Shown here: positions 3,946 through 50,803 of the stretch, piece after piece
How the letters are laid out: every line of letters starts with the position of its first letter
Numbering within the stretch: position 1 is the first letter of the stretch
NCBI GenBank assembly: GCA_008632985.1
Contig: QPGO01000013.1
Coordinates: 62,001-126,000 of the forward strand
DNA from: Psammoneis japonica
Taxonomy: Eukaryota
Direction: 5' to 3'
DNA length: 64,000 nucleotides
The notes under the pieces: model-generated
Told to the model about the DNA's origin: nothing
Database searches by the model: none
What the model saw: only the letters and a program-made list of their open reading frames with translations
Program-made: the position numbers and the translations under genes

Positions 3946-4237
3946 TGTGGAAATTGAAAATCGTTTGTCGGACTCGATGATTTGCGGAAAATGTGAAGAG
4001 TTTATGACTTCGCTATGTCTCAGGACAAACGGGATTGTGGGCGTCTTGAACCCGTGTTGTGTCGTGACGTTTCTTTCCCGCCACCAACCACATTATACCT
4101 ATTAGTAACTGGATATTAAAACGGGATTATTTCTAATGCCGATCTTCATTATAAAACTAATCAGAATTGTATTTTTTACAATATATTTGAAATTACTTAT
4201 GCCTCCCGTCCATTTCCGCCGTCCACCCCTTTTTTTT

Positions 4238-6935
4238 AAGACTGGCCACATAAAAAGGTGCTAACGCGCGCTCTCGAGCTCTCAAAATTTGTTTCGAGAA
4301 AATGGCACTTACAAGATTTTTGAGCGATGTCAAATAATTAAAGTGTCAACATAAAACATTACATAAAATTCATATGTACACAAGGACTGCTATTAATTTT
4401 TATTTGTATCCCTCTCCGAAAGAACTGCATTGGCTTTGGCGGTTTTCTTTTTCTTGTTTCGCGCCATCTGCTCAGCGCTCTCCGCCTGCTTGTTCTTTCG
4501 CTTCTCTCTCTTGCTTTTCGCAACGCGATTGAGGACGTCGTCTCCAGGATGAGGGCACATCTCATCTTGGTCTGCCTTGTCAAGAAGCGGCTGATGCTTG
4601 GCACAAAGCTCGACCTTCTTGACATCCTTGACACCTGGAGCTGTCAAGGCAAGTGGTTGTGACGTTTGCAAGTTCTGTTTTCGTTGCTCGCTCGATTCTG
4701 TCTTCCTCTTCTTGAGATCCTCGCTAACTTCTGGCTCACCGTCCGCTGCTTTCATTGTCACTGCCGCAGGTTCCGAAGAATCTGTCACTTCAAAGCAGTG
4801 GCACTTCGCAACTGCGCTGTGCTTCTTGCAATGTTGGTCAAAATGCGCTCCATGCCCCACAAAATCCTCCTCCTTCGCTTCAACGACCTGAACATGTTCG
4901 GAGGTGTCCAAGGCTGTCAAGAGTTTGCGGAACGTGCCGATGTTCTTGTCACGGCAAGTTTGCTTGAGGCTGTTGAAGAGCCTGTCACAGGCATTCTTGG
5001 TGTGCCCTTTTGTCAAAAAAACAATGCTCACTTCTTTGAAACATCCTTGTTCCACCAGGTGAGAAGCAAGTCTCAATGCCGTGTTGTTTTTGTTTTGCCC
5101 GATGCAGTTGTCAAAAATCAATACGAGCTTTCCACCTGGACCCTTGCTGACATCCAACAATCCACCATCATGCAAGTGCTTCATCACAAGGGAAGCAACA
5201 TTGTCGCCTCCCTTTTGGCCAGCACCCTCATGGTGGACGCATGCATGCAAAAAATCCTTGAACTCATCTTCCGTCACCGTCACAACTTTTTTCCCCGCAG
5301 GATCGGCAACCCCAAACATGTTGATCGTCAAAGGAGAGAAGTGGTGCGTCTCCCCTGGCTGATCCACCCCAAAATGTGGAAGCCCACCATTTTGACAACA
5401 GTCACCAATCCTCACGCAAGTTCGCTCGCCGTGTGCCTTGTCGGCTTTTGCTTGTTCCATCGCTTCCGAAACATGCTGTTGCACGAGTGTCCGTTGCTTT
5501 CGAGCCCACTCGACGTGCTTTGCGGCGTGCAACATTTCATTTTCCTGTTCTTCAATCTCTTTCATTCTCACCTCTGCATCTGCTCCATCTTCTTCATCAT
5601 CATCGCTCTCCTCCTCCTCATCCTCGTCGTCGTCGCTCTCACCCCCCATCTTTTCTTTCATCGCTTTCATCCTGAAGCCATTTGCGAACTTGTGGCATTC
5701 GTCGCAGATGTCACAAGTGGGCCTTCTCACGACAATTTCAGGACAGTTCTTTTTCCAGAACTTGCAAAATTGTGCCCAGGAGCATGTTGGTTGCTGGTCT
5801 TCTCCTTCGATTGGTTCCGCCTTAAGAAACTTGCCTTTGTGGTTCGATTTAAGGGTCCAACCATTTTCTTGTCCGTGCCGTTTGTGTGATCCACGCTTTT
5901 TCACGGTGGGAGGTGAGTCGTGTGTGTCTTCATCTCTCAAGCCGACACCTGTCTCTTCTCTAACCAGTCTCGTTGCACGTGGCTCAGAAAGTTCCTTTAT
6001 GTCATCAAAATGTGCGTGAAGGGCTGCACACATTTCGGGTGCAAGCGTCTTGTTCGCGTTCTGCCCAGTTTCCCTTTGAGACCATGTTGCGGAAAGACAT
6101 TGCTCTTTGCACTCAACTTGGCAGTTCTCCAGAACTTTCTCCCTTTGCCTGGCAATGCAAGGAGGGCACTATAACAGACCAGATGATCGTCTGGCGGCGT
6201 CCCCTCCTCCGCCTCCTCCTCGTCGTTGTCGTCAGTTTTCAACAGCGGCAAAACAAAGCAGCGACAATCACCCTTGCATGCATGCTTCTGAATGAAAGTA
6301 GAACATTTAATCCAGGATGTAAAAGCAGCATGTGTTTCTGTGTGTCCCAGTCTTTCAAAGTACACGAGGCAGTTGCTCAACATTTTCACGACGGAGGTGT
6401 CGTTGTTCTCCAACATTGCTCTTAGCTTTTGCAGACACTGACATTTCGTAGGTTTCTTTGTAGTTACCTGGATGCAATGTTCATGGAAAATGGGAGACTC
6501 GTTAGGGTCGGAAAGCCAATCGTAGAACTTTTCTGCCGCCTCATCGTCCTTGACGCCTTTGGTTAGTTTCGGCCGCGCCATTTTTTTTGTGACGCTTTTG
6601 CTTTTGCTCTTGTTGCCTCCACCAAGAGAATTTCAAATTCGAACCTTATGTTAAGTGCTTAATAATTTGTACAGACTTATATAATCTTAAAAAATATATG
6701 CTTTTATACAACTTGTGTACGTGACTTTCTTGGTACGGTCAAAACACTCATAGTAAACAATTCAAGCCGTTAATTTAGTTTATGGCTAATAAAATGTCAA
6801 GGAAGCATTGCCAGCCATTGACACATACATCGCTGAAGAGCTGAGATCAAGAGCTTTCGATCGGTATCCATACCTCAAAATCGACCATACGAGCTATTTC
6901 GAGCTCCGTTAGCACCTTTCTATGTGGCCAGTCTT
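4238..6935 (-). mobile_element. Cut-and-paste DNA transposon (Sola-like/DUF7869-type DDD transposase), 29-bp TIRs, 4-bp TSD TTTT, inactivated by TpA hypermutation
   Basis: TIR AAGACTGGCCACATAAAAAGGTGCTAACG at 4238-4266 and its reverse complement (1 mismatch) at 6907-6935. TTTT flanks both ends (4234-4237, 6936-6939). Internal transposase ORF. Confidence 0.85.
4393..6581 (-). pseudogene. Transposase in two ORFs (5997-6581 and 4393-6033) separated by a frameshift near 6040
   Basis: Motifs DICDECH, D(Y>C)CQN..LP.FG..QPGET(YY>HH)FSPL, (Y>H)HEG...KGG.NVAS, FDNC.GQNKN, KGHTKNACDRLFN. The 546-aa ORF contains no Tyr. Confidence 0.85.
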
Positions 6936-7233
6936 TTTTGCACCCACTTCTTCGTTCACTTCCACGTGGAGTACAAAGATGTTTGCGCATGCACCGACCG
7001 ACCTCGACCCCCTCCCCTCGACGGACCCTCGACCCTCGATGTTGTTGCTTCTCTCGATCGCCTCCCGCCTAGAGGAGAGGGTAACCGGGAAAACAAGTAG
7101 GAGCGTCGCCATTTCTCGTAACGAGGCTGGGATATAATTTGAAAAGAATCTCGGCTGAAATATTATTTGGTTTTAGGCTTTGGAGACTGCGGAAGGACGT
7201 TTCTTGAGTCGTTTCAGAGTCAATCGCGGAAAC

Positions 7234-8536
7234 ATGCATTCTGTTAGTAGAACGTACTTGCAGACTACTGTTTCCACAACAGAGGAAGAAGCTGCAGAAC
7301 ATGCCGAAGAGGACATTCAATCACAAGGCCTTGATGTGGATTGGTCGTTTTGGCTCGTTCTCTGGATTGGCTATGGAATTGCATGTATTTTTCTTGCAAT
7401 TCAAGTGTTTCGGAAACAGCCTGTCGGATCGAGTCCTTCTGACACAAACACTCCTAGTCCTGGTACAGGCCGACCGAGTCGCTCATCCAGTCGTCGCGAT
7501 TTGGAACGCGGCAGAGCAGACACTAGTGAAGGACTGAGTAGTGGGGATAAAACACGGCAAATTGTGAGTGGAACTAGGAAAAGAGCTTTCGTTTTGCTTT
7601 TGTGACATGAAACCCTCACATTTTCTTTTATTGTAGTTTTATAAACTACTCCTGGTGGCGCTCTTGTCGCGGTTTGTTTTGCTGCCGCTTCAAGTTTGGG
7701 TTCATGCGCCGTCTTGGTGGAAATTTTTCGGGGACACATTTCCAATCATGACGTTTGCATCAGCATGGGTGGTGCTTGTATCTTTCTTTGTCCAGCTGGT
7801 TGAAACTGCAACCGGCATGCTATCAGAATCAACTAACAAGAACACTATCGTCATGCAAGTCATTGCCTATGTGATGTATGCCATGCTTCTCATTGTATAC
7901 GTTTGGAACGATGCTGCCATTTTGTTAATGTACGCACTGCTGTCATGCATCCATGCGGCTCTTTTTGCTACTCTCATATACTTTGGGCCCAAGCTTGTTT
8001 CGCTCTTGAAACCCAGTTTGTCACAACGTTCAGGGTTGGCTGTTCGACTTATATCCAGCGGTCTGCTCTGTCTCTTTGTTTTTGCAGGGCGCACAGTCGA
8101 ACTGTCGCGAAAAGTCTTGCTTTTCCAGCAAAACGAGCCCTTGTGGTGGTTCGCGTATGCAATATTTGAATTGATTCCCGCGACAGCCTTACTCATCATG
8201 ATGAAGAAACAACGAAAAGGTAGCCGTGACAGTCGGAACCGAATGGGTGGAAGTGGCGCCAGTCCAAACGCAGCGCCGCCGGGGACAATGCCTTCGCCTC
8301 CAATAATCGCATCGACTACTGGAGCGCAATCGAGCCTATTAGAGAAAAAGACAAAGTCGTTACCACCAGTAAAGACTTACAGCAAGACATCCCAGTCAAA
8401 AATGCCGACAACAACAGAGGGCACCTCTTTGTTGCGACCAACCACCGTAGGTGGATCCGCCTACGGCACCGCAAACCTAATCAAGGACAGTCACGCCGCC
8501 GCGCCGATTCATCGAAGCAGTACACCAACTAGCTAA
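7234..8536 (+). CDS. Multi-pass membrane protein, TOM1/THH1-like; 2 exons (7234-7563, 7637-8536)
   Basis: In-frame GT-AG intron 7564-7636, about 7 hydrophobic helices, last helix YAIFELIPATALL, Ser/Thr/Pro-rich tail. Family assignment is by resemblance only. Confidence 0.55.
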
Positions 8537-19710: not shown

Positions 19711-22700
19711 ATGTCTCGTAGGTTCTCTACCCTCCACGATTGTCAGAAACTTGCTGCAGAAATCAACCCAATCTCGTGTTCGGTAAGGCGTGCAAGTTCG
19801 ATGGGCGAGATAAACTTGGACCAATTGAGCTTTGGCAGTCTTCCACTTTATGGTCGTGACAAAGAGCTATCAACACTGCTCGAGGCTTACGAAAACGTGG
19901 TCTCTCGGGGAAAGACCAACATTGTGTTCTTATCGGGATACACCGGGGTGAGTGAGCGTTGGGCGGGGATCACAAAGAGTTGAAATCGTCCTTTGAGGGT
20001 CGTGAAAGGATCACATCTCTGACTAAGCCTTGTTTCAATGTTGTTTTCAGGTTGGAAAGTCTGCTATTGTGAAACAGTTTCAAACCAGCATAGACCGCAT
20101 GGACATTAGCAGAGAAAAACAAAGTCTTTGTGCCTCTGGAAAATTCGACCTTCATGCTCGTGTCGAGCCCTACACAGCGTTCGTTTCGGCGTTCACTGAA
20201 CTGTGTTATGAAATTCTCTCTTTGAAAAGAAGTCATCAAGAAAGGTTCCAGCGAATAAAACAATGTATTGAAGAGTATGTTGGTTTGGAGGTATGTGTGG
20301 ATGGAACCTCGTCAATGGTTGTCGAAAGACGCCCTACATAAAAATTGCTCGTTCCCTTTTGTGTAACCTGCAGGCTCCTCTTCTGTCGGACCTCATTCCC
20401 AATTTGCACGAGATTTTGGAGATACCCCAATCCACTGTCAACTTCAATGATAGTGAAGAGTTCGGTTCCAGTCGAGGGAAAAACAGGTTCAACTTTATCC
20501 TTCGCCAGTTCGTGCGCGCAGTCTGTGAATTTTGCCCAGTGGTGTTGTTCCTGGACGATTTACAGTGGGCGGACGCGGCTTCAGTGGAGCTGCTGGAGCT
20601 ATTTCTGACCGATTCTGAGTTGAACAACTTGCTTGTTTTGGGGTGCTACAGGTCAAATGAAGTAACAGAGGCTCACACAGTGAGTGCGATGATTCGAGAT
20701 TTAGACAAATACAATAGTAACGCAAAAGAAGAATCAAAGATTCAGGTGACGTCAATTGAAGTATCGGCTTTGGATGTTGACGCGATACACGGTCTCGTAA
20801 CCGATGTCTTGCGATCCGATGCAACAAAGACGTTCAATCTCTCAGTCATTGTCTACGAGAAGACACTTGGAAACGTATTCTTTGCTGTGCAATTTCTCAA
20901 GATGCTCAAAGACGAGGAGCTGCTGACATTTAATCTTGGTACGCTTCGCTGGTCATGGGATGACGAAGACATCCGTGCTAGCACCACTGTTACTGAGAAT
21001 GTGGCTGACATTGTCCGAAACAAAATAACGCGCCTTCCTCCCAAGGTCACGCACGTTCTGCAACTGGCGTCATGTCTGGGATCGACGTTTGCGGGGTCTA
21101 CGATTGAAGTAGTGTCCAATGCTGTGTTGGAGTCTGGCGGTTGGAAATATAGCGATATGAGGGGAGACGCGTCTTCTTCTCATAGTGTCAGTAAATTGGA
21201 CTACACTTTGAAAGAATGCTTACGTGTTAGCGTCGACGAGGGCCTTCTGGAGGACTGCGTGGATCCGAACGAAAATGATGATGTGTACAGATTTGTACAC
21301 GATCAGATACAAGCTGCGGCGTATGCGTTAATTCCTGAAGCTGAACGGGAGCTTCTCCAGGTGCGTATAGGAGAAGCGCTGGTTAACAACCAGGCTGAAG
21401 ACGAGGTGGACAAGGTTTTGTTTGTTGCTATCGACATGCTGAACAACGGCAGCTCACTCATCACTTCTAAAGAGAAGCAAATCTCTCTCGCAAGGCTTAA
21501 CTTGAGGGCCGGGAGACGCGCAATGGAATCATCAGCTTTCGTGTCAGCGTCTACATATCTTAAGAAAGGCATAGATCTGTTGGGAACAGATAACTGGGAG
21601 ACACACTACCAATTGAGCCTCGATTTATTCAATTTGATAATCAAAGCCGACTATTGTATTGGGAAATTCGATGAAGTCTATGGATATGTCGACGATGTTT
21701 TGAAGCAGAAGGACAGGCCTATCAGTGAGAAGGTTGACGTCTACTCAACTTTCGTGGAGTCTCTTGGAGCTCAGGGAAGAATACAAGATGCCATCAAGAC
21801 ATCTCTCAAGGTGCTGGCACAGCTGGGAGCCCATTTCAATCTCAAACTGGCAACGGTTTCTACTGTGTCAGAGCTGATTAAAACAAAGCGCCTTTTGAAA
21901 GGCCTCCCGTTACTTACTTTGTCAGACCTGCCAGTGATGAAAGACAAGTGCAGGATAAAGGCGATGCGAATCATGAACAGGTGCTGCACCTATGCCTACG
22001 CTGCGAAACCAGAGCTTTTGCCATTGTTGATATTCAAAATGATGCAATGGTCGATGCAGTATGGAGTTTGTCGATATTCAACGACCGCCTTTGCTCTATA
22101 CGGTCTCCCACTTGTGTCTCTCTTTGGAGATCAGAAGGCTGCACACGAAATCGGAAAAGTAGCTTTAACTCTCTCGGATAAGCTTGAAGCGAGGGAAACG
22201 CGCTCGGCAACGCTTGCTTATGTCAATGCATGTTTAAACCACTGGGTTGCACCTCTTCACGACAGCAGGAACCAGTTTCTCAGCGGCTATCAAGTGGGTT
22301 TACACACCGGCGACATTGAAAATGCGATGCTTTGCGCAATGAATTATTGTCATGCATGCTTTGAAACGGGAAAGCCACTCACAGAAGTCGAAGCGGATCT
22401 TCGAGCTTTCACAAAACAAATGGAGGAATTCAACCAGACCCTAATTCTAAACGTGGCACTTGTCATATGGCAAGCCGTGCTAAATCTTCTTGGCAAGTCA
22501 GATGATCCGACTGTGTTAACCGGCGAAGCAATGAATCAAGAGGAATTATTGAGACACTGTGCTACTACAGGAAATGTCCAGCTAAGAGATGGTATAAGAG
22601 CCGTCCAGATTGAATTAGTCTATATGTTTGGGGACTACGAGCGGGCGGCGAAGATAGCTCTCGATCTACGAAAGCTGGCAACGACGAACCCAGCTACCTA

Positions 22701-23211
22701 TATGCTTTGGAGATTTGCTTTGTTTGAAGGTCTATCTTACTTCGCCATGGCACGGAAGAAGAGGTTCAAACCAAAGTGGAGAAAACGAGCCTCTAATGCC
22801 ATGAAGAAAGTTAGAAACTGGGTTTCAAAAGGAAACGCAAACTGTGTTCATATCTATCAGCTGCTTGAGGCAGAGTCGTTTGCTCTAGCGGGCAAAACTG
22901 AGAAAGCAAAGAAGGATTACGATCTTGCAATTGCTTCTGCAGCTCGTAATGGCTTTCCGCGGGATAGAGCATTAGCCAATGAACGCGCTGGCGAGATGTT
23001 TTTTGAGACAGGAGACAAACTGTTGGCCGCAGACTACCTACAGTCAGCTCATCGGCTTTACATGGATTGGGAAGCTCGTGAAAAGGCCCAGTACCTCTGC
23101 CGCTTGTATCCTTCCTTGATTAGCGAGGACATGGGGCAATCACTGGGCTCAAGGAGCATGGTTCACATCCCATCGTCTGAAGTGGCAAACCCTGTTGTCA
23201 ACCCTTTGTAG
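19711..23211 (+). CDS. P-loop AAA (AAA_16/STAND-like) ATPase with long helical/TPR region; 3 exons
   Basis: LYGRDKE, Walker A SGYTG|VGKS across intron 19948-20050, GKFD, LFLDDLQWAD, GCYRSNEV, KTLGNVFF, YRFVHDQIQAAAY, ALANERAG. Confidence 0.85.
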
Positions 23212-24453
23212 TCTTCTTGAAAGCTCGCTTCAGAGTTAATATTTCAAGCTGCAACACCTGTCAGGCATCAAGAATGCCGTATTCGCAACGTGCAATTCAA
23301 GTTTTGTGCATGGTGTTTCATCTAGTTTTGTATTGAAAAATCACCCGAGAATTGCAATGGCGACTTTGGAAGTCTATGAAGGCTCATACAGCATAGGATG
23401 GCTGCTTTTCTTTTTTGCGGGTTTTTCCATTTCTCGCTATCATAGTGTCTGTAATCTGAGTCCTTTCTATCTGAGGTGCCACATCACCTCTCGCTCTCTA
23501 GAGAACGAGCGAGAACAGTGTGATTAGAAGCTGCCAGGGCTGCAGCTAGGTCTCGGGAGGGTCTCTTCCTCAACCTGCCATAGATGGAGGTGGACTGGGG
23601 TACTGTATGATGCAAATACTTCTACTCTATTTACTCTAAAGAGCCCTAGCTGCTCTAGACTTACATAGGATGGCGCTCACTCTAGCTAGCTACCATGGCC
23701 CTTGGCTGGTAGAGCCAACTCTACAAGAGAGTAGCGCTACTCTCTAGAGTCTAGCTAGAGCTAGCTAAGAGAGCTACTGTACTAGAGGCTAGCCTCTACC
23801 GGTAGGGCCCTAGCTACTAGAGTCTACTTGAGTAGAGCTGGCTCTCTCTAGTAGCTCTACTCTCTAGCTTGAGTAAAGTAGAGCGAGCTACTACTACTAC
23901 TGTAGCTACGGTATGGCCGACATATTAGGTCTAGCACAAATGCCTATTTCAATTTTAGTAGCGCGACTGAGTCTAAATAAGGATTACCGTACTCAAAGGA
24001 ATTGATATTTATAATACCCTAATGAACAGAGATTTGAACTAGTTGCCCGCTAAAAATCAAATGACAGTTTGAAACGGTGAAATTTGAATTGCTCTCAAAA
24101 TTGATAGTCAATTCTCTTACACGATTTGAATTTTTTGAAAATAACGACGAAAAACGCGGCACATTATGATGGACTTTGAAGTCTATATAACACTGTATAA
24201 TTGTATAACGTTGAGTCAGGGCAAACAATTATGAAACAATAATATCATGGATATGAGTATAAGCCGTTACATATGGTTTTGTTGGCACCTGAATCCTGGT
24301 AACGGATTTTCGCGCGTTTTCCACTGAAACCAACCACACAAAATCGGTCATCCCGCCTTTTTTCCAACAGGCAAAAATCAAGAAGGGGATTGCACTTGGC
24401 GGTACTTTCTCGCTGAGTCTACTTTTTCTCATACATAGCGTTTCTGAGACGAC

Positions 24454-26471
24454 ATGATGAAAAAGTGCTTCATCTCTGCCGCTTTGCTCGTGGCATCGTG
24501 CCACGCCAGTGGGCCTCAGCGTCTTCGTCGTGGTGCAATCCACTTTGTAGTTGACCATCAGAAGAAGGAGCCCGCAGTTCCCATGAACGATATCCAAGAT
24601 GAGTGGTGGAGCGATACGAATCAATGGTTCCAGCGACAGCTGCAAAGCGCCTCCTTTTCGTTCGAGTCATCCTTTTCGTTCGAAACGTCCTTTTCGCACA
24701 GTCCGACACCTCCCTCTCCTACACCAACGCCGCCGATGCCTCCTACATCAACGCCGCCTATGCCGCCTACACCAACGCTTCCGACGCCGCCTATGCCTCC
24801 TACACCAACGCCGCCGATGCCGCCTATGCCTACACCAACGCCGCCTGCGTTGCCGCCTACTCCGTCTCCAACACCGGAAATTCCTGTGCTCCCCATACCT
24901 CCTACTCCAGCACCCACAACTGATTTTCCTGCAACAACTGATTCACCTGTCCCCGCGACTCCAGCACCCGCACCTGGTACTCCAGCGCCTTCAACGGAAG
25001 CACCGGCAACAACTGACTCACCAGAGACGCAGCGACCTACACAAGCAGACACTCCAGCTCCGGATCCTGTTACCAAATCCCCGACACCAGCTCCGGATCC
25101 TGTTACCAAATCCCCGACACCGGCGCCGCTCCCAGATTCAACAAGTGCACCGACGGATGGGGATACTTCAGCGCCGACGGCTTCTCCAACCTCGAAATTG
25201 ACTTCAGCTCCGACTTTTGAATCAACCTCTGAATCGACTTCAGCTCCGACTGTTGAATCAACCTCCGATTCGACCTCATCTCCTACTGTTGAATCAACCT
25301 CCGATTCGACTTCAGCACCTACATCTGGATCCACAACTGAAGCTACTTCAGCTCCAACGGTGGCGACTACGAATACCCCAACGGACGCTCCTCTCGCAGA
25401 CCCATCCGCCTGTGGCATCTCCGACACAGAACGCGAAGCTCGAATCCGTTCCGTACTGGGAAACGTCACTGATGTCGCTGCTTTTAGTGAAGAAGGGTCT
25501 CCTCAAAGAAAAGCTCTAAACTGGATTATAAACGAAGATGGTGCGCATTTGTGCCCAGACAAGCCCAACTTGATACAGAGATATGTGTTGGCCACACTGT
25601 ATTTTTCCACCAATGGAGACGGATGGACTCACTGTAGCCGGACGGGTACGACTTGTGCCAATACGACAGTGGCCGCAAAATCGAGAGGAAATCCAGAAAA
25701 CTTTTTGTCCAGCGGATCAGAATGCTTCTGGGGAGGTATCTACTGCAATTCGAACGATTTCGTTCGTGATCTTCAAATTGGTACGTGCCTAAACCAGGAA
25801 GTGATTTTCCTTGTGGATAGCGAAGTGAATTATCTAGATCATCTGACTCTTTCCAAAACCTTTTTGTGTTTGTACAGACAACAATGGGTTGGTTGGAGAA
25901 ATCCCCAAAGAAATTGGAGCCTTATCCTCTCTTCGCGTGCTTGGATTGGGAGTAAACAGGTTGAGCGGAGAAATCCCGGCCTCCCTCGCTTTGATTCATC
26001 CATTCTTAGTGCTGCGTCTGGACAGAAACATGTTGGATGGCCCTTTTCCAAGTGGTTTGTCTAGGTCGATTGTTCGAATCAATGTGGCCTTCAACAATCT
26101 CGACGGAACTTTACCGGGCGAGGGTTATGGACCCAATTTGCGAGTTGTTCAATTTCAAGCGAACAATTTCCGAGGTGAAATCCCAGGCAGCATTGCTGCC
26201 AATTCCCCAAATCTGGGTAAGTGCGAATTGTTACGTATCTTCGATAATGACTTGAACCAATGAGCCGTACGGGTAACTCACTACTTTTCTTGCTTTTGTC
26301 GTTGCAGGCGTTGCTCGTTTCAATGGCAACTCCTTAACTGGTGACATGCCAACTGCATTTTGCGACCTTCGCCCCAATGACCCATTGAGCATGACCGGCT
26401 TATACCTCCTGACGGCCGACTGTCCTTCTGTGAACTGCACTTGCTGTACGAACCCAGAGTGCTCTCCTTAA
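24454..26471 (+). CDS. Secreted leucine-rich-repeat protein with Pro/Thr/Ser mucin-like stalk; 3 exons
   Basis: Signal peptide, PTPPMPP and STSAPT repeats, diatom-type cap SPQRKALNWI...QRYVLATLYFSTNG..W...ECFWGGIYC, LRRs (N.LVGEIP.EIG.L, NRLSGEIP), ends CTCCTNPECSP*. Introns ~25781-25877 and ~26217-26308. Confidence 0.85.
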
Positions 26472-32842: not shown

Positions 32843-33312
32843 GTGATGGGTTGTTTTCGTGAGAGACGAGGGAAAACAAAAAAAAATGACCATCGGCATC
32901 ACATCGGAGGGAGGGTAGTGAAATCTACGTGATTTGTAAACGCGTCGTACAATGAGTACAAGCTCGTACGTCCATTGGATGACGTATTGTCTTATGTCTT
33001 CTATATATCTGAATACTGTATGTTAGAATCTTTCGAATCTTCGTGTGAATCATGACCGAATCTTTCGCCTCTCGCTCTGTGGGTGTAACTCATGCTGGGA
33101 CCATTGCCGCATCCTCCAAAAAACCTCTGCACTTTCTCGCCCTGCGGCTCCATGACAGCACAGCCTTCATCCAAAAGTGCCACCCTGACCCACTGCCAGG
33201 TCTGCCATGGCATCATCATGAGTGTTGCTGTCACCTGCTCTTGTTGTGTCCAGCAGTGTGCTGCCACTGTGCTTTTGTGTGTTTCTCCTCGACACAGCAT
33301 GTTGCTCACATG

Positions 33313-34065
33313 ATGACACAAATTTTCACCCCCCAAACACATGACACTCACCTTTTTCCCCTCAACACCTCTTTGCTGCTGCCCCAGTGCATCCAATGTG
33401 TGTGCATCATTGACCCCACCCAGCGATGTCTTCTCCAGCCCACAGGGGGGCATGCGGCGTGCAGCTCCCAGCAACAGCACCCCCGGCTGCTGCCCCATCA
33501 TCAAGAGAAATGCTGCAGCTCCAGCAAGCAAGACCTCCTGCTGCTGCCTGTGACATTGATCTTTTTTGCCACATGCCATGCATCATGCATGTGCTTCTCT
33601 GCATGACTTTGGCGGCATTTTGCATCGCTTTGCTTTTTTGATGATTCTTGGGTGGCCGCAGAATGTGCTGGTGTGGTGCAGACAGATTTTCAAGAATTGT
33701 GAGCATGAAAGGCAATTGTGCTGCAAACTTGGGCATTCATTTGGATGTTGAAGATTGGCACATTGTTCGTCACTCTGTGCAGCTGAGCAGCTGCAAAACT
33801 TCTTGCTGCTGCTGTTGACAATTGTGAGGAACACTTCCGAGTTGACATGTTTGGTCAGATGAAACATGTGTTCTGCACTTCACACAGGAGGAGGTGAGCA
33901 AATGTCTTCATCCACAAACAAGGAGCTTTGCCCCAAGCTCACATTTTGGTGCTCAGCGAGTGCTGCACAATCAATGCACAATGCACAGCACTGTGGTGGG
34001 CAGAGCTTTCACTCACCATGATGCACAGCTTTTCGGGGGGGGGGGGGGGGTGAAAATTGTGACAT
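33313..34065. repeat. Possible degenerate inverted-repeat pair bounding a ~750-bp non-autonomous element
   Basis: ATGACACAAATTTTCACCCCCC at 33313-33334 versus GGGGGG..GTGAAAATTGTGACAT ending at 34065. No TSD recognisable. Confidence 0.3.
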
Positions 34066-34639
34066 GGGTTGCTTGAAGTCAACACACAGTTGTGTCAACA
34101 TGCTCACTTTGCAAGTTGTGTGGGCTCCACCATGCAGCATGCACTTTTAGCCTGCACGCATCATTTTCTGCTGCAATGAGAGCCCCATGACAAAAGATGT
34201 TGCTGGCATCTGCCACTTCTCATTCTCGTGTGGTGCATGCTGTGCAGTGCACATCATGCTCCCTGCCCATGACAAGGGCCACAGAGTGCCAGAAACATCT
34301 TGCTGACAGCAGAGCACAATCTGCTGCAGATGATTGTGTTTGTCTGTCACTCAGTTGTGGTGTGGGCAGTGTGCCATTGTCATTTCTGTGTGGGGTCAAC
34401 TCACTCTGGCTGGCAGGGTGGGCCTGCACAACTCTGTCAGCTCTCTGCACATTTTGACTTTTGTGTTCTTGCTGGACAAGCATCAGATGTCAATGGCACA
34501 CTGGTCCTCATGCTTGCCATTTTCTTGTTCATTGTTTTTGTTCAGACCAGCTTCTGCTGTGCTTTCTGTCCTGGGTGTGTTTCCACTTGGCTTGATGTGC
34601 TGCATCCAACACAGCACACCTCTGCCACTGAAAAGTGTC

Positions 34640-35560
34640 AGCTGCACTGGGCTTGCTTGTGTGGCAGCATGCACCACAGCTCATGTGTGGCAAATGTGAC
34701 CACTGCAAACACACTGCTCAATGGGGGTCATCCTCATCCAGCTCCATGTCCTGCACTGAAAATGAGTGCATCCTGTTTTCAGTTGTCTGGTGCACATTCA
34801 ACATTCTTTGCTGTGATGGAGCAGTTCACCTGTGGGCTGCACTTGGACATGGGTTTCCTTTGAAGGCTGCAGCCATCCTGTGTTTTTGTTTGACCAATTC
34901 AGCCATGAATTTGAAACCTCTGTTGAAGATTGCCTTTCTTGGTCATGGATGGTGTCTGCATGGCCATGCTTGTGCATTGTGCAGCTGGCACCACAGCTCA
35001 TGTGTGGCAATTGTGATCACTGCAAGCAGCACACCACTCCACAGGCAGGGGTCATCCTCACCCAGCTCCACATCCTGCACCAAAAACAAGTGCATCATGG
35101 TTTCAGTTGTCTGGTGCACATTCTCTGCTGCTGTAGAGTTCACCTGCAGGTTGCACTCAGTTGTGGGTTTCTTTTGAATGCTGCAGCCATCCAGTGTTGT
35201 TTGACCTCTGTGTCAAAGATTGCCTTTCTTGGCCATGGATGTCTGCGTGGCCATGCTTGCACCACAGCTGGCACCATGGCTCATGTGTGGCAAATGCAAC
35301 CACAGCAAAGCACACTGCACTGTGGGGGTCATTCTTGTCCTCCAGCTCCACATCCTGCACCAAAAATGAGTGCATCATGTTTCCATTTGCATGGTGCAAA
35401 TTCTCTGCTGTTAAGTTCCCCTGCAGGTTGCACTTGATTGTGGGTTTCTTTTGAAGGCTGCAGTTGTCCAGTGTTGTTTGACCATCTCAGCCACAAATTT
35501 AATGCCTCTGTTGAAGATTGCCTTTCTTGGCCTTGGACATCTGCGTGGCTGTGCTTGCTT
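34640..35560. repeat. Degenerate tandem repeat, ~3 units of ~280-320 bp
   Basis: Anchor CCAGCTCCA..TCCTGCAC..AAAA at ~34738, 35062 and 35342; GGGTTTC.TTTGAA.GCTGCAG and AAGATTGCCTTTCTTGG each recur three times. Confidence 0.75.
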
Positions 35561-35699
35561 GATGACACTCAACACACAGCATTGGCACACTCAGCAGTGG
35601 CTTCTTCAGCAATCTCAAACCAGCCTTTCACAGGGTCAACTGCTGCAGAGCTTCCCACAGATGTGGGAGTTTCTTTCCTCATCACTTGACATTGCACTC

Positions 35700-37480
35700 C
35701 CATGTCTTGTCTGTGCATGCTGAGGCTTCCCCCATGGGACAATTTCATTTGCTTTTTCTGATGGCAACTTGCTTCCCACACTTTGGTTTTGTCTCTCTTT
35801 GTCTTCTGACACATGATTTGGCTGCATGCTTGGAGCTCTTCTTGTTGGAGCACACTGCAGCTTGCATGCCAGGAGCATGCTGGGCAGAAGCAGTGCCGGG
35901 CAACAAGAAACACCTTCTCAGTTTGTGTCTCTCCAGGATGGAACAACTGGAGACAATGCCAGTCAGTCACCTGCTTCTGCAGTGATGCTGGAACAAAAAT
36001 TTTGACCTCAGCACAAAACAGTTGTCTCATGGACATTTCTCCTCCACAAAAAAGCACACTGGGAGTGCTCCTCCACATGCAAGCTTTCTGCAATGGGCTC
36101 TTGTCCTTGTGCTGCTCCACTTGCAGTTGTTTCATGAAGCTGGTGGGTGCCACTCAGTCATCCACTGCTTGTGCTGTGTGAAGGCCAGGTGAAGAGGGCA
36201 TGCTTTGTGCATTTCCATGGCAGCATCATGGGGTCACACACTTGGAGTCCAAGGGACAGAGTTAGATTGAGACAGCTCAGCTCACAAGCAACCAAATTGT
36301 GGTGGCATTTGGGGCATGTCACAATTCAAGCCTGTGCTGTTTGCACATGGCAAGTGCTGGTGCATTGCACACTTGGTCTTTTGAACATTTTGCAAGTGTG
36401 AGATTTTTGTGACCAGCACAGCATGTGGTCATGAAACAACCAAGAAGCATGGGATCTGAACTCTTTCAGAGGCTCAGCAATGGCACATGATTCTCTCTCT
36501 GCCATTGCACAATTCAACTGAGCACTGTTGCACATTTGGCCATTGTCTGCAACATGCATTTGTGCTTCATGAGAAGAGCAATGAAACAAAAAATAAAACT
36601 TGTGTGTGTGTGTGTGTGTGTGTGATTGAGTCTCCACAGGCCTCCCAACTTTTCAATGGTCAGCCAAGGTGAGAGTCACTGTCATTTGAGTTCTAAGTTG
36701 ATGCTTGTTCATTTTCAGCCACAAATCTGGCACTGGCGCCAAAGCCACCATTTGGGTTGACAGTTGACTTTTCCACTGATCATGGATTTGCAATGTGTTT
36801 CATTTTGTGGCTCAGCTTCTTGATTAGAGTTGATTCATTGCTGGCTTGGGAGAGCTTCAGCTCATTTGCCCATTGCTTGTTTTTTCTGTTTCTGCTGCAC
36901 CCATCTCTTTGTTGCATGAGGCACCACACAAATCAGCCACTGATCTGTTGTTGCAAGACAATGACTTGCCCCTGTCACCACATGAAAAGACACTCCTTTC
37001 AAAACAACAAACTCCTCATGGAACCAAGCCCTTTTTGACAAACAAACCAGCGCAGCTTCAAACTCAAATCCTTTCCACCCATCAAGTGTCAACCTGCACT
37101 TCAAACCCCAAATCACAGTGTCAAGTCATCCCCACAGTGGCTGTGTTGTCATTGAACCTTGTTGTTGTTCATGCTTCCTGCCACAAAATGCTCATCAAAC
37201 CACAATTTGACAAATTCCAGTGTTGGCCCAGATCTCCTGTCAGTGTGGGTCAATCTGTGCCTCATTCAGAGCACCACTTTCAAGCTGTTGATTGACAACA
37301 AATGCACTGCAAATGCTTTTTGGTGGGGTGCCAAGTCATTGGGCCAACATGGCTGCAATTTGGTTTTGAGCCATTCTTTTGGCCCGTGTCTGCGCACTGC
37401 ACACTCTGTTTCATCTGTGGAAGTTGATTTCTGTGGGTGAGAAAGCCAAATCATGTCTGCTGTCCATTCAGCTCTTCCTT
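35700..37480 (-). pseudogene. Heavily decayed Ty3/Gypsy pol relic (RT start, RNase H, integrase zinc-binding region)
   Basis: QLN(Y>C)AMAERES.AI.E.LKEFR (RNase H); KIFVPASLQKQV.DW(Y>H).LQLFHPGETQTE (integrase H2C2); KLP..KA.EI.PW; P(Y>H)QKAF.V. Confidence 0.6.
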
Positions 37481-38289
37481 GTCACTTTGCAAGTGCACCA
37501 GGGTTGTCTCTTTCAGAAGATTGCAGAGGGTCACTTGGATGCTGCACTTGTTGAAGTGCTGGCATCAACTTGCTTGTTGGAGAGAACAAGGGCAAGCATT
37601 CTCCACCCACCCAAGGACTCCAAGACCTGGGCTGCATGAGTGGCAGTTGCAACCAAGGCTTTGGGGACAGAAAACTCATTTGACATTGGGGCTTTGTGCA
37701 AAGGTTGGCATGGACAATTGGTGCCACATTGTGACAGCTGTGTTGTCAACACAAGCTCAGTGCCACAAAGGCTTGCTCAACAACTCACAGCAGGAAAACT
37801 TGACAAAAGGCTGTGAGCCTCCATGAACTGTGTGGGACAAAATCAACAAAGCTTGATTTTGCATTTCTGACTTGCATCCCAGCCAGTCCTCCCATGACAT
37901 CCATTCTTGCTTGAACTTGAGATCAGGGTGAAGTGGAGGGCAGCTTGCCCATTTGTTGCAGCTCTTCATTGCTTCCAACAAAGAGAAACTTCTTGTTTCA
38001 AAAATGCTGCTGGAAATTTCTCCACATTCTTCTCAAGCCATGTCTCTCTGGCATTCCCAGCACACTGCTGCTCACCCACTGCCATTCAGCAATCAACCCT
38101 TTGAATGAGCCACACCCTCCACATCCTGCTCACATGTGCATCATCATGTCTTTGTGACACAGCCCATCATTGTCACATCATCCTGCTGTCTGTGGCAGTG
38201 TCACTCTGCTGTCACCACACCAGCCAACCAGCACTGGTCAAATCTTGAAGAATCTGTGGACCAAAAAGTGCACCTTCCAATCATTCAAC

Positions 38290-39900
38290 CACTGGGATGT
38301 TGGGGTTGGTTGATGACATCATGGGGTCCTTGCTCTCTGGAGTGTGTGAAACTCAAGTCTGCTTGTGTTGGGGACAAGGTGACTTGGGGCCACAACACCA
38401 CAACATCAGCCTTGCAATGCTTGACCACAGTTCTCAACCCTTCAACCACCAGACTTGAGCAATTTGCTTGCTTGCATCACACACGTGTCACAAACAAAAC
38501 ATTTTCAAACATGAACAACAAAAAATTCATGCAGTTTGGTTTTGGAGTGCACATTCATCAAAAATCTGGGGAGCCATTTTCAAAATTTAGAAAGTTCAAT
38601 GTCAACTTTTAACATCAGGTTTTTGCATGCTTCATCTGTGCATGGAGAGGAGCTGAATCTCAAGAACCTTCAACAATGAAAGTTGTGAGGAGTTGCTGTT
38701 GCAAATGGAGCAACAATGCCATGGCACCCTTGGAGCAGCAAATCTCCACCGGTGGAGATTTGCTCCCACACAAGCAAAGGCATCTCTGGAGTGCACTTTG
38801 TGTGCACTGTGGGTTGCACTTGATGACATTTTCAACACTGTGGTGCTCATCATGTCATCACACAAACATGTGAGATGTCACAAATTCCTCAAGCAGCTGG
38901 AGCAACTTGTCTCCACCTTGCTCCCTCAGCCAGAGGAGGGTCAAAGAGTGTTGCCTGCTGGGGTCCACCAGATGCCACTTGTGCCAGGTTTGTTGGCACC
39001 ATCATGGGGTCCTCTCACTCTTGAGTTTGGAGGTTCATTTTTGCCATTGGGGACAAGGTGTGACATGGGGCCACAACACCACAAGATCAGGCCACAGCTC
39101 TTAAAGTGCCACCTGGGGTCCACAGACACAGCCAGTGCAGTTGGCTTGCAGTTGTTGGGTTGGTTGGCACCATCATGTGGTGCTTTCACTGTGGAATTGG
39201 CAAGTTCAAGTCTGCACCTCCTGTTGGAATGAGGTGATGTGGGGCCACAACTGAACAATGCAGGCCTTGCACTGCTGCTCAACCATGGTTGCTGCAGCAT
39301 TGTCCAGGGTCCTCTAGAGACTGCCGGTGCCCTCAGCTTGCTGTTGTCAGGCTGGTTGGTGCCACCATTTGGCCCTTCTTTCACTCTAGCTGGAGTTTGG
39401 AAATTCATGTCTGCTGTTGGGGACAAAGTGTGACATGGGGCTGCAACACCACAAGATGGGCTCATCAACTTTGCAACAGTGTTGCCTGGGGTCTGCAGTG
39501 TCCTCAGCTTGCAGTTGTTGGGTTTGTTGGCTTTGTTGGCCCCACTGCCTTTGGTGCTTTCACTGTGCTGGAGTTGGGAAGCTGGGTCAAGGAGGTGACG
39601 TGGGGCCACAGCCACACAACACAAGTCCAAGCCTTGCACTGCTCAACCATGGCTGGTTGTTGCAGTGTCACCTGGGGCCCACCTTTGGCTTGCTGTTGTC
39701 AGGTTGGTTGGTGCCATCATTGGGTCCTTTCACTGCTGTGGGGAGGTGGGAAATTTAAGTTTGCTGCTGTTGCTGCTGTTGGAGACAAGGTGGCATGGGG
39801 CCACAACACCACAAGATCAATCTTGCAAAGCTCAGCCACAGCTCTTAAAGTGTTGCCTGGGATCCACCAGAGACCACCAGCTCCCTCAGCTGGCAGTTGC
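38290..39900. repeat. Degenerate ~180-bp tandem repeat (further units at ~49470-49830)
   Basis: GGGGACAAGGTG(A/G)C(A/T)TGGGGCCACAACACCACAA-like units near 38370, 39050, 39230, 39420, 39590, 39780, 49535 and 49800. Confidence 0.7.
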
Positions 39901-41202
39901 CTGGGTTGGGTTGGTTGGGTTGGAACATCAGGGTGTGAGGCAGTTTTCACAGGACAGCAAGACAATGTTGCAGTGAATGACACAGTGACGATGGTTGATG
40001 TGGCAAACTTCTTGTGTTCACAACTCATGTTGAGTTGTGGGTCTTGTGCTCAATTTTTAGCTTTTGCACCCAGTTGACATGGCAACAGCAGCAACAGCAA
40101 CAGAGTTGTGTTTGCAATCCATGTGGCAAGCTGGGGATTGGTGAGACTGAGTGTGCGCCAGTCAGCAAGCCATGAAATCCCAGCACAGAAGCCAAAAGGA
40201 GCTGGCTGGGAAGTCACCAAGAATCCAAAGGTGCAACTCATGTCAGCGGATTATTGTGGCAAACAAGCTGGCTGGATGAAGGCAAAGAAACAGTCTCTGG
40301 AAGGCCTTGCAGCAAGGCCAGGAAGCTGTCAAGGGTCTTGTGGTGAAGTTGTGTCATGGGGGAGGATGCAACTGAGCATGGATGCACAAAACATTTTAAG
40401 GAGTGGATGCACAATGCCATTCTTGGGTGCCAAGTCAGGATGAAACAGACAGATGGTCACAGGAAGACCATGAGAAAAACAAGCAAGCATGTTGGAAGAA
40501 TGTTTGAGCCAGAGATGCAGGTGCTCCTGGTGTCTCTGAGGCAGGAGACCTGCTGACTGGAGGAACTGGAGCATCCATCAGGTGCAACCATTTGCACTGG
40601 AGAAGGACAAGGCAATGTTGAGAAAGCAATGCAATCACTGCACAAACCAGGGTGCAATCTACATGACACAGAAGGCAAAGACATTCAAAAAAATTGTGGG
40701 GCAGTGCACAAAGGCCATCCATCACAAGATTGAAGGAGTGACAGAGTTTGTGAGAGTCACGAAGGAGTTGTGGCACTGTTGGGAACTCTCAAGTTGATCT
40801 CATTCAGCAAAAATGGAAGCAGCTGGGCACTCATTCATCAAGATGAAGGAGAGGCACTCAAAGATTGCTGCAGCTGGTCTTTAATTGAGATGACAGAAGG
40901 GTCCCATGGCAGGGTCATCTCAAAAGAAATCACCAAGAAAGCAGATGGGTTCAGCACAGATGCTGATGACACCCAAAAGAAAGAAAGGAGCAAGTTGTCA
41001 GTGGCACTGCCAATGGAGGGCACCAAAGAGCATTGGTGTGTCTTGAAAACCTGCACCAGCAGTGCACACTGGGGATTGATGATTGCTCCAATTCAGCCAA
41101 CAAGGCACTGCAGGTGTTGGGCACATGTGGGACAATCAACAAGACACCTGAGGGTGCAAGTTTTGCACAGAACAAGAAAAAAGAGCTCAAGTGCTGGAGA
41201 TG

Positions 41203-41677
41203 AGTCGAAGCTCGCATGTCCACGCAAGCTCCGAGTGCCTTCCTAACGCATCGACTGGATGTCCACTCCAGATCGACACCTCAGGCAGAACACAAGCAGG
41301 TGGAATCTACTGATGAGCGGTGACGAGCATTTGGTCTTTCACCAAAGTGCCAGTGACCAAATTGTGAGCTGCCTAGACTGAATCTGCTGAGTGCACCCAA
41401 ACAGAGGTTGATCCGCAGGTTTGCACCAGTGGCCAGTGCAAACTTCAGGGTTGACCACATTCACAACAATCACCCAAATGCTGCTGAACCAATCTGTGGT
41501 TGGTCCAACATCTGTGCAAAGCCTGTGATCTCCAAAGCACCGCCCATGATCCCCAAAGCATTCGGCTTGAGAAGAATCAAGTCTACGTGGCGCGAAAAGA
41601 ATTTCAATGAGAATTCCGACTGACGGAAGTACAGACACAACAGAGAATCTGGGTCGGTGGACAGACGAACCACGACT
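41203..41677 (-). repeat. 3' LTR (475 bp)
   Basis: Direct repeat of 48522-48993; ends AGTCG...CGACT. Confidence 0.92.
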
Positions 41678-41823
41678 CTCCCTCTCATTCACAGATTCCA
41701 GCAACCAACAAGAAAATCGCAAACGAGAAAGCTCACACAATTGGCACAAGTTCAGAGCAAAGCTCCTGCATCTTGACCGAGCCACAACATGCAACAAACA
41801 AAGGAAGCGATGCTTCCAAAGCA

Positions 41824-47800: not shown

Positions 47801-48187
47801 CGTTGGACTGGAGTTGGGAGTTTCCAATCCAGACCAGTCAGCCTTGGGTTTCCCACTGGTCCAAGCAACTTTCTCAGTGGAACCAATGGCGACAACCCCC
47901 CCATCTTAGGAGCCTTGGGTTTGTAGACTTTCGTCTTTGGCATCGCCGCGGCTGCCATGGCAGCCACAGCCTGAACAGTGCGACGTTCGTCTTCCGTCAT
48001 GCCAGAGCCTGCAGCGGGCTCGTCATCATCATCGTCCGAGTCGTCATCCGAATCGTCCGGGTGATGTTCCAAGGGCGGAACAGGGTCGTCGTCTGGGTTG
48101 TTGGGGTCCTGAGGTGGTGGATTATCCTCCGGTGGAGGTTGGTCCTCAGGAGGCTGGTCCTCGAACACTTCGGGGTCGTCAGCCATG
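41824..48187 (-). pseudogene. Copia gag-pol polyprotein broken into 4 ORFs
   Basis: Zn knuckle CNNCGKLGRWARDC, WHWCAKCHRWSTTH, protease IWDSGAS, integrase WH.RLGH/CAACQ.GK/VSVDHF/SDNG/NGVCER/WGCPVYVL, RT KAR..CRGD.Q/(Y>H)APVV/KSL(Y>C)GL/(Y>H)VDD, RNase H WVDADFAG/STLEA/QLAD..KPL. Confidence 0.92.
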
Positions 48188-48521
48188 TCCGACAGCGCGC
48201 TTGAAGCCATCAAGTAAAACCAATCGTCTGGGACATTCTCAATCAAAGAGTGTGAGCTCAGAGAACTCTCTTGGGTCTCAGGAGGGCCACGGGGTGGAGC
48301 AGGGCCTGAGATGGTGCATGTGCAAAATCAACAACAAACCTTCTGGCGGAACCAGCTGTTCAGCTGACGGAGTCAGTCACAGCACTTGATGTCAAGAGCG
48401 TGGAGCACAGCCAATGAGGAGCGCTGACGGCATCAGAGCCGTTGATGGGGTTGCTCTGGTTTGGGCATCCCCAACCGGAAGCGCAGAACGTGTTAAGTCA
48501 CCCCAATTGGGTGAACTGACC

Positions 48522-48993
48522 AGTCGAAGCTCGCGTGTCCACGCAAGCTCCGAGTGCCTTCCTGACGTGTCGACTGGATGTCCACTCCAGATCGACACCT
48601 CAGGCAGAATGCAAGCAGATGGAATCCACTGACGAGTGGCAACGAGCATTTGGTCTTTCACAAAAGTGCCAGTGACCAAATTGCAAGCTGCCTAGACTGA
48701 ATCTGCTGAGTGCACCCAAACAGAGGTTGATCCGCAGGTTTGCACTGGTGGCCAGCGCAAACTTCAGGGTTGACCACATTCACAACAATCATCCAAATGC
48801 TGCTGAACCAATCTGTGGTTGGTCCAACATCTGTGCAAAGCCTGTGATCTCCAAAGCACCGCCTATGATCCCCAAAGCATTCGGCTTGAGAATCAAGTCG
48901 ACGTGGCGCGAAAAGAATTTCAATGAGAATTCCGACTGATGGAAGCACAGACACAACAGAGAATCTGGGTCGGTGGACAGACGAACCACGACC
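48522..48993 (-). repeat. 5' LTR (472 bp)
   Basis: Direct repeat of 41203-41677 with one 3-bp indel and ~18 substituted sites. Confidence 0.92.
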
Positions 48994-50310: not shown

Positions 50311-50803
50311 AAACTTCTCTGCTGTTTTCTGCCAGGGATTGCTGTTGCATCTCACAATGAAAAGCTGTGTCACAGAAACTAACTCTCTTTGAAACACAAT
50401 GACTGGAACATGATGTGATGCAGCCTGCTGGAGCACCAACATGCAAGACAGGCTGTGAGAGACAATGGGGCAACAGCTTGAAGAATGGAGGAAGCAAAGG
50501 CAGTGAAGTGACAGCACTGGATGCAGGTGAGCAGAAACAGCAGCATTGTGCCTTGTTTGCCAAACAAAACATGCCACCAAATTGAAACCTTCTCTGCTGT
50601 CTTCTGCCAGGGATTGCTGTTGCATCTCACAATGAAAAGCTGTGTCACAAAAACTGACTCTTTTTGAAACACAATGACTGGAGAACATGATGTGATGATG
50701 CAGCCTGCCAGAACACCAAGATGCAAGACAGACTGTGAGAGACAGTGGGGCAACAGCTTGAAGAACAGAGTTGGCAAAGGCAGCAAAGTGACAGCATGGG
50801 ATG
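50311..50803. repeat. Direct duplication of ~215 bp (50311-50523 and 50585-50803)
   Basis: CTTCTCTGCTGT.TTCTGCCAGGGATTGCTGTTGCATCTCACAATGAAAAGCTGTGTCACA occurs twice. Differences include TA/TG and TG/CA swaps. Confidence 0.85.

Follow-up and report, generated by a model that had tools for sequence, protein, structure and literature searches.

Why would a transposon lying among genes lose almost every TA dinucleotide (TpA) from part of its length and yet keep its CG? The question is raised by a 64,000-nt stretch of the diatom Psammoneis japonica (assembly GCA_008632985.1, contig QPGO01000013.1, positions 62,001 to 126,000 of the forward strand), hereafter the window, in which a cut-and-paste element encoding a DUF7869 transposase-like protein occupies positions 4238 to 6935. 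The element is bounded by terminal inverted repeats (TIRs) and carries one long open reading frame (ORF) that contains no tyrosine. Dinucleotide abundances are given as observed/expected ratios (o/e), and coordinates are those of the window.

A sharply bounded TpA-free tract within a DUF7869 transposon

The element and its parts are as follows:

4238 to 6935, minus strand: cut-and-paste element with a DUF7869 transposase-like protein and TIRs; unique read contigs halt at 4264 and resume at 6906, and other copies diverge before 4238
4238 to 4266: left TIR, 29 nt, with TA still present, 97% complementary to 6907 to 6935
6907 to 6935: right TIR, 29 nt, pairing with 4238 to 4266
4234 to 4237: candidate 4-bp target-site duplication TTTT, with its partner at 6936 to 6939; ambiguous, as it lies within a T run
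4393 to 6033, minus strand: 546-aa ORF with the DUF7869 domain, free of tyrosine; D211, D308 and D350, which are invariant across homologs, are retained
5997 to 6581, minus strand: N-terminal part of the DUF7869 gene in another frame, with the motif KPTKCQCL shared with the longer homologs P0001-P0004
4408 to 6165: TA-free tract, with a core at 4408 to 5800 and an edge at 5801 to 6165; CG o/e 0.76-0.80

Six TA were counted in the 1756 nt from 4410 to 6165 (at 4725, 5122, 5823, 5850, 5961 and 5998; o/e 0.06), against ~61 expected at the window background o/e of ~0.6 (probability of six or fewer, 1.8e-19). CG is retained over the same interval (n = 85, o/e 0.79), CA and TG are in excess (o/e 1.53 and 1.33) and AA shows no deficit (o/e 1.71). 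TA-free gaps in the tract reach 701 nt, compared with a maximum of 200 nt among the 1546 background gaps of the window. Division of the element into four parts shows where the loss begins and ends:

4238 to 4407: 13 TA, o/e 0.70
4408 to 5800: 2 TA, o/e 0.02
5801 to 6165: 4 TA, o/e 0.19
6166 to 6935: 42 TA, o/e 0.68

The TA loss has sharp borders, which lie within the element and do not coincide with its ends. Upstream of ~6165, the ORF at 5997-6581 still has both TA and tyrosine. The two frames of the gene part company at an extra C that other copies of the family carry after position 6069 (two contigs, 263.4 of 263.4 depth), which marks the point of the frame shift.

The 546-aa ORF contains no TAT, TAC, TTA or CTA codon, one ATA and one GTA. 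Relative to 16 homologs, it is enriched in histidine (5.3% versus 3.1%) and cysteine (3.7% versus 2.0%), and these homologs have 4.3% tyrosine. We defined tyrosine columns as those in which at least six of the 11 aligned homologs are present and 60% or more of these have tyrosine. At the 16 columns so defined the window residue is histidine in seven, cysteine in six, another residue in three and tyrosine in none. Histidine (CAY) and cysteine (TGY) each lie one transition away from TAY, the change falling on opposite strands in the two cases, and therefore TA>CA and TA>TG are the route by which TA was lost. These two transitions cannot make a stop codon, so long ORFs survive in ruined genes; a 352-aa antisense ORF is among the frames left open.

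The two strands were hit equally and their products are interleaved, with seven histidines against six cysteines. Along the protein the two residues alternate about as often as a random order would give. Forty windows of 500 nt gave no sign of strand-coordinated domains; across them the z-score of CA versus TG has a standard deviation (SD) of 1.05.

Against the Pfam model for DUF7869 (PF25273) the 546-aa ORF scores 73 bits (cut-off 26, E = 3.1e-20, residues 302-425). All 16 homologs contain PF25273, the closest being 36% identical to the window ORF, and the protein atlas labels the window transposase as DUF7869, eukaryotes. Elements of the Sola superfamily (Sola1, Sola2 and Sola3, with RNase H-like DDE transposases) have TIRs and a 4-bp target-site duplication. 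According to PMC5751038, no Pfam domain existed for Sola when that paper was written.

Much of this had been anticipated in an earlier note on this DNA, made from the letters alone. Its six TA fall where it had placed them, with CG retained; the codon count agrees with its tyrosine-free ORF; the five motifs that it had picked out at expected tyrosine sites (GDCCQN, GETHHFSPL, CVHHEG, QGCF and VELCAKH) all fall within the 16 tyrosine columns; and its tentative DUF7869 assignment is confirmed by the profile score. The link that it drew between DUF7869 and Sola is a putative one. Cysteine and histidine shared by every homolog would have spoken against the note, and homologs elsewhere retain tyrosine. 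Loss through CA and TG transitions at the level of DNA, as the note proposed, is likewise upheld, both by the replacement of tyrosine and by the discordance between copies described below. The note had also taken the depletion to be a property of the element, and this did not hold, as only 4408-6165 of 4238-6935 is affected.

TpA loss after integration in a nested copia element

A second and much larger region of the window has the same composition. Its parts are listed below:

33087 to 53438: TA-poor block of 20 kb, TA o/e 0.04-0.09; its longest TA-free gap is 1763 nt
33250 to 41198: block A, made up of older, degenerate repeats; TA o/e 0.04, CG 0.06, CA 2.10, TG 1.82
41199 to 48996, minus strand: Ty1/copia long terminal repeat (LTR) retrotransposon, inserted into the older repeats; TA o/e 0.09, CG o/e 0.71
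41199 to 41677: left LTR of the copia element, identical to the right LTR in 450 of 483 aligned columns
48517 to 48996: right LTR of the copia element, aligned to the left LTR
48997 to 53200: block C, also of older, degenerate repeats; TA o/e 0.06, CG o/e 0.07, with repeat families in common with block A

Taking the tract and this block together, the four TA-poor regions of the window have TA o/e of 0.04-0.09 and CA or TG o/e of 1.3-2.1, compared with TA o/e of 0.57-0.62 in the window genes. The copia element encodes, on the minus strand, zf-CCHC, gag_pre-integrs and rve followed by RVT_2, and is flanked by the two LTRs (93% identical). Its ORFs contain 2 tyrosines in 1309 residues, 0 in 416 and 0 in 371. 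The catalytic motif of a reverse transcriptase is usually YVDD; here it reads LHVDD. CG density shifts at the edges of the copia LTRs. The copia element keeps its CG while the flanking blocks have lost theirs, and it is therefore a younger element within older repeats, in which TA was lost first and CG later. No Pfam match was found in any of the three ORFs tried from block A.

The LTRs of one insertion are identical at the start, and their differences record what has happened since. In the copia pair, there are five dinucleotides at which one LTR reads CA and its partner TG; four further sites have TA against TG or CA, one has TA against GA, and five have CG against TG or CA. The remainder comprises three other substitutions, one 3-nt indel and unalignable columns at both ends of the core. 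The five discordant CA/TG sites would be expected from double CpG loss with a probability of 2e-7 at the rate suggested by the data. Single CG losses are too few to yield five double losses, and so the discordant sites are old TA resolved independently in the two LTRs. The proportion between single and discordant sites leads us to estimate that each LTR had ~14-15 ancestral TA, an o/e of ~0.53 (27 expected at o/e 1), which resembles the background. The estimated loss per LTR since insertion is ~83% for TA, ~10% for CG and ~0.35% for other sites, with an estimated divergence of ~0.7% between the LTRs outside pyrimidine-purine (YpR) steps.

As the two LTRs of one insertion disagree at edited sites, the loss took place in DNA after integration. 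It is more than hundred-fold specific to TA and is faster than CpG decay. The earlier note had excluded an RNA route on the class of the element. This exclusion stands, with the discordance between the copia LTRs as its firmer basis.

Internal repeats of the old blocks, compared pairwise, gave 27 discordant CA/TG sites, 58 other transitions and 56 transversions, and are too diverged to decide the matter. Several further features of these blocks were observed. Tandem repeats with a 277-nt unit lie at 34926-35483, and dispersed repeats at 38300-40200 and 49200-49800 are common to both sides of the copia element. The sole long dinucleotide run in the 64 kb is a (TG)12 at 36601-36624, inside a block without TA and CG, and may be a by-product of YpR steps being driven to TG and CA. 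A tandem duplication of ~370 nt (52852-53564) spans the right border of the TA-free block; its outer copy has TA at 53439 and 53506, and its inner copy has CA at both.

Other copies of the DUF7869 family

Other copies of the element were sought at 80% identity or more in Logan contigs of three runs (X1-X3), which represent one sample and possibly the source of the assembly itself. In total, 358 contigs matched. Summed contig depth is 230-1300 over the element and 55-60 over its flanks, a measure of depth that is not to be equated with copy number. The flanks show no differences from the window. The family itself has 245 variable places, comprising 204 transitions and 41 transversions. Among the 40 of these places that were listed, 34 are transitions inside CA, TG or TA, and 16 form eight adjacent CA<->TG swaps between the window and other copies. 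Also among these 40, eight have TA in the window and CA or TG in other copies, three have TA in other copies and CA or TG in the window, and seven have CG in other copies and CA or TG in the window. The eight swaps bear out the expectation that different copies had resolved the same TA independently to TG or CA.

The claim that the element is solitary survives within the 64-kb window, where no second copy of it was found. It fails for the genome, in which the family is multicopy in reads, and for the phenomenon, which recurs in the TA-free block at 33087-53438. The further claim that targeting is specific to this element was not sustained, as unrelated TA-free repeats, including the copia element, extend over 20 kb of the window. 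Separately, one read contig fuses position 4258 to 6850 and omits 2591 nt of the element, which suggests a short deletion derivative of the family (resembling a miniature inverted-repeat transposable element) elsewhere in the genome.

Sequence context of the surviving TpA

The TA that survive in the TA-poor regions are not a random sample. YTAR contexts (Y, pyrimidine; R, purine) account for 50 of 77 survivors, compared with 283 of 1546 TA in the background (chi-square 95, p = 2e-22). These 50 consist of 19 TTAA, 21 CTAA/TTAG and 10 CTAG. In the oldest blocks, A and C, the proportion rises to 30 of 37, and ATAT, GTAC and ATAC/GTAT are nearly absent among survivors. The density of TTAA is 1.26 per kb in TA-poor regions versus 1.65 per kb in host DNA. 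Double CpG decay was considered as a source of the surviving TTAA and was rejected, as YCGR makes up ~26% of background CG contexts versus the 30/37 seen for YTAR. Gains of tetranucleotides, as a test of a strand rule, are confounded by composition.

Metagenomic loci with the same signature

JGI metagenome contigs were scanned with the DUF7869 family alignment, and 80 loci were kept. In 78 of these, TA o/e in the matched part ranges from 0.36 to 0.89. Two outliers (L053, TA o/e 0.00 and CG o/e 0.19; L057, TA o/e 0.13 and CG o/e 0.68) are TA-free copies from a different DUF7869 family:

L057, 301 to 2550: TA-free copy
L053, 1 to 1502: TA-free copy

At L057 a TA-poor tract of ~2.1 kb adjoins DNA with normal TA; no TIRs were found at this locus. 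The homologs have TYY and DY at sites where TCC and DC stand in L057 and THH and DC in L053; the two loci thus resolved one tyrosine pair differently. The TA surviving in the two loci lie in YTAR in 9 of 17 cases, compared with 2446 of 12901 in the other 78 loci. As both loci share the signature, an artefact peculiar to the P. japonica assembly is unlikely.

Origin of the signature

Taken together, we consider it probable (roughly 0.8) that the tract was left by a host process which edits TpA in integrated mobile DNA. Such a process would convert A:T pairs within TpA to G:C, so that TA would become TG or CA according to the strand hit and other bases would stay nearly unchanged. What the sequences show directly is that the changes are transitions at TA on both strands, that they took place in DNA after insertion and separately in each copy, and that they struck the cut-and-paste transposon, the copia retrotransposon and the older repeats and spared the neighbouring genes. 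YTAR contexts (TTAA, CTAG and CTAA/TTAG) largely escaped, and CpG was lost later and more slowly. Reading frames stayed open while their tyrosines turned into histidine and cysteine, the LHVDD motif of the reverse transcriptase included. The putative agent would be an enzyme acting on DNA, most likely an adenosine deaminase of the ADAT2/TadA kind (A to inosine, read as G), as has been proposed for the chlorarachniophyte Bigelowiella natans. Its guidance to silenced or foreign DNA may come from chromatin or small RNAs and not from copy number alone, and the later CpG loss would be the ordinary decay of methylated CpG.

Several points weigh against this reading. A CpG origin of the five discordant LTR sites has a probability of 0.03 if a generous loss rate is allowed. 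The runs X1-X3 are possibly not independent of the window. The TA-rich ends of the present copy are unedited, though other copies have lost those very TA. Some of the TA surviving in the old blocks could be new, having arisen by double CpG decay. A strand rule derived from the YTAR bias (RTAR>RCAR, YTAY>YTGY) fits only six of nine informative sites, which is not significant. Lastly, a 64-kb window alone can show no enzyme, inosine or de novo event.

The alternative that fares best concerns the trigger. In a process like fungal repeat-induced point mutation (RIP), duplicated DNA would be recognised by homology and mutated only in the segment shared with a partner copy. The family is indeed multicopy, and its depth of 650-1300 over 4503-6005 versus 230-540 over 6006-6840 approximately matches the edited tract; the copia element and the older repeats are likewise repeated sequences. 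However, the left end (4169-4335) also has a high depth (824) and yet keeps its TA in this copy, and the main hypermutated region of B. natans is single copy in the account available of that system (10.64898/2026.01.13.699255). On balance we regard a trigger of this kind as rather unlikely.

It is also conceivable, if improbable, that no deaminase is involved and that a base modification at TpA in silenced DNA (5-hydroxymethyluracil or 5-formyluracil, or N6-methyladenine) causes T>C or A>G through miscoding or faulty repair. The symmetry of the strands and the lack of strand domains would fit such a lesion. A palindromic target with a flank preference (RTAY hit, YTAR spared) would suit a sequence-specific modifying enzyme, and CpG loss in the same places suggests a chromatin domain that is also methylated. 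We know of no such mark at TpA in diatoms, and the loss of ~83% of TA against ~0.35% of other sites per LTR would need a very mutagenic lesion.

An artefact of sequencing or base calling at modified bases is barely credible: some platforms make systematic miscalls at modified motifs, but the same LTR contexts are read differently (CA in one, TG in the other), the Logan contigs combine zero flank differences with a family-wide pattern, and two unrelated metagenome contigs share the signature, as does B. natans, whose process is seen in Illumina mutation-accumulation data according to the preprint. Selection in place of mutation, whether through avoidance of TA (a TA-cutting nuclease or self-insertion) or through descent from a TA-poor donor, has hardly more than a nominal chance. 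The open ORFs are what might speak for it, with nothing specific, and they are automatic when TA>TG and TA>CA make no stop codons. Moreover, near-invariant tyrosines are replaced, the reverse transcriptase motif reads LHVDD, the gene is frameshifted, non-coding LTRs and degenerate repeats are equally TA-free, and copies resolved their sites differently. Very improbable, too, is ADAR-like RNA editing (A>I in double-stranded transcripts) that entered the genome through reverse transcription or cDNA-templated gene conversion. The tract lies inside the transcribed coding part of this copy, and its preference for a 5' U/T resembles the ADAR preference cited in the main text of 10.64898/2026.01.13.699255. 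However, the edited sites differ between the LTRs of one insertion, which places the editing after integration; the DUF7869 element has TIRs and no reverse transcriptase; AA is not depleted; and the strands are equally hit.

Comparison with known systems

In the literature searched (TpA loss, RIP-like processes in diatoms, 5-hydroxymethyluracil and adenine deamination), the only TA-erasing process found was that described in B. natans by Mettrop et al. (bioRxiv 10.64898/2026.01.13.699255, April 2026). A term search of the accessible text of two papers on diatom transposable elements returned no mention of TpA, dinucleotides, hypermutation or deamination. The main text of the preprint reports TpA-specific A:T>G:C hypermutation of integrated viral DNA. 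Two integrated viral regions received 231 of the 302 nuclear point mutations recorded in mutation-accumulation lines; 230 of these were A>G or T>C, and every GC-biased one lay on TpA. The process ran at ~6e-7 per site per generation, ~1000-fold above background, and was active in some lines only. The B. natans genome contains 124 clusters that are poor in TpA and rich in CpA and TpG, DDE endonuclease and reverse transcriptase domains are over-represented in its TpA-poor coding sequences, and an ADAT2-like deaminase is proposed as the agent.

Going by that main text, the two cases are alike in that TpA alone is converted, to TpG or CpA by strand, in clusters poor in TpA and rich in CpA and TpG, and in foreign or mobile DNA and not host genes. 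They differ in the host, a chlorarachniophyte there and a diatom here, and in the targets, which there are inserts of nucleocytoplasmic large DNA viruses (NCLDVs) and virophages and here are a transposon, a copia element and old repeats. Depletion also differs in degree, with a Rho of 0.45 in the NCLDV region of B. natans and near-complete loss here (o/e 0.02-0.09). The rate was measured de novo in B. natans, whereas ours is an indirect ratio from the LTR pair. The flanking bias, CpG, the sharp partial tract, dating by LTRs and diatoms do not figure in the main text of the preprint and are additions here. We would read the P. japonica case as the same kind of signature, in its end state, now in diatom transposons.

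Fungal RIP is similar in that tract-wise transitions driven by the host ruin mobile DNA, spare genes and let copies diverge independently. However, RIP turns CpA into TpA, enriches TA and makes stop codons, whereas here TpA becomes CpA or TpG, TA is erased and no stops arise; the lineage is another one as well. ADAR and APOBEC also deaminate against repeats and viruses, and the 5' U preference of ADAR fits TpA; their substrates are RNA and single-stranded cDNA not yet integrated, whereas the changes here followed integration, hit a DNA transposon as well and left AA untouched. Decay of methylated CpG also yields CA and TG and is present in the older blocks (CG o/e 0.06-0.07), but it is slower, each LTR having lost ~10% of its CG against ~83% of its TA, and is a distinct process that followed TA loss.

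What is new here is that both classes of transposon are targeted, that an LTR pair dates the editing after integration, that flanking bases follow a rule, and that TpA is lost before CpG. If confirmed genome-wide, this would give a major group of phytoplankton a general defence, would explain 'intact' ORFs without tyrosine that mislead the annotation of genes and transposable elements, and would point to a natural DNA adenine editor. A wider proposal, which we hold only tentatively, is that diatoms and chlorarachniophytes share a programmable adenine-editing immunity of DNA, guided to new mobile or viral DNA, which would turn RTAY-type TpA sites of both strands to G:C and in the end leave none. 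Were it true, a natural A-to-G editor of chromosomal DNA would be widespread in the SAR clade (stramenopiles, alveolates and Rhizaria) and would be a main cause of diatom transposons dying with open, tyrosine-less frames, and the sparing of TTAA would offer a direct handle on the enzyme.

Other features of the window

The window has uninterrupted ORFs of 972, 602, 546 and 536 codons. For B. natans a mean of 8 introns per gene is given in Table 1 of PMC13746701. Together with the named homologs of the ABC-F gene described below, this points to a diatom host and away from B. natans. At 7563-7637 a contig of run X2 bridges a 73-nt GT..AG intron; X2 covers only the genes beside the element and not the element itself. 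The X2 contigs look transcript-derived, the type of run not being on record.

A small island with the opposite bias lies at 23251-24250, between the ORFs at 20293-23211 and 24454-26064. Its TA o/e reaches 1.79 (60 TA per 500 nt), its CG o/e is 0.41-0.47 and its G+C is ordinary. Inside the second of these ORFs, which has no Pfam family, in-frame tandem repeats with units of 24-57 nt occupy 24718-25316.

The window also contains an HSF-type gene, a histidinol dehydrogenase, which falls in bacterial clusters in the protein atlas and so is uninformative as to taxonomy, and an ABC-F gene. The HSF-type gene, the copia element and the 73-nt intron mark the window as eukaryotic. All named homologs of the ABC-F gene are from diatoms, with identities of 61% in Epithemia, 59% in Amphora, 58% in Seminavis and 56% in Nitzschia; further named homologs occur in Skeletonema, Chaetoceros, Cyclotella and others, and the closest hit overall is 71% identical.

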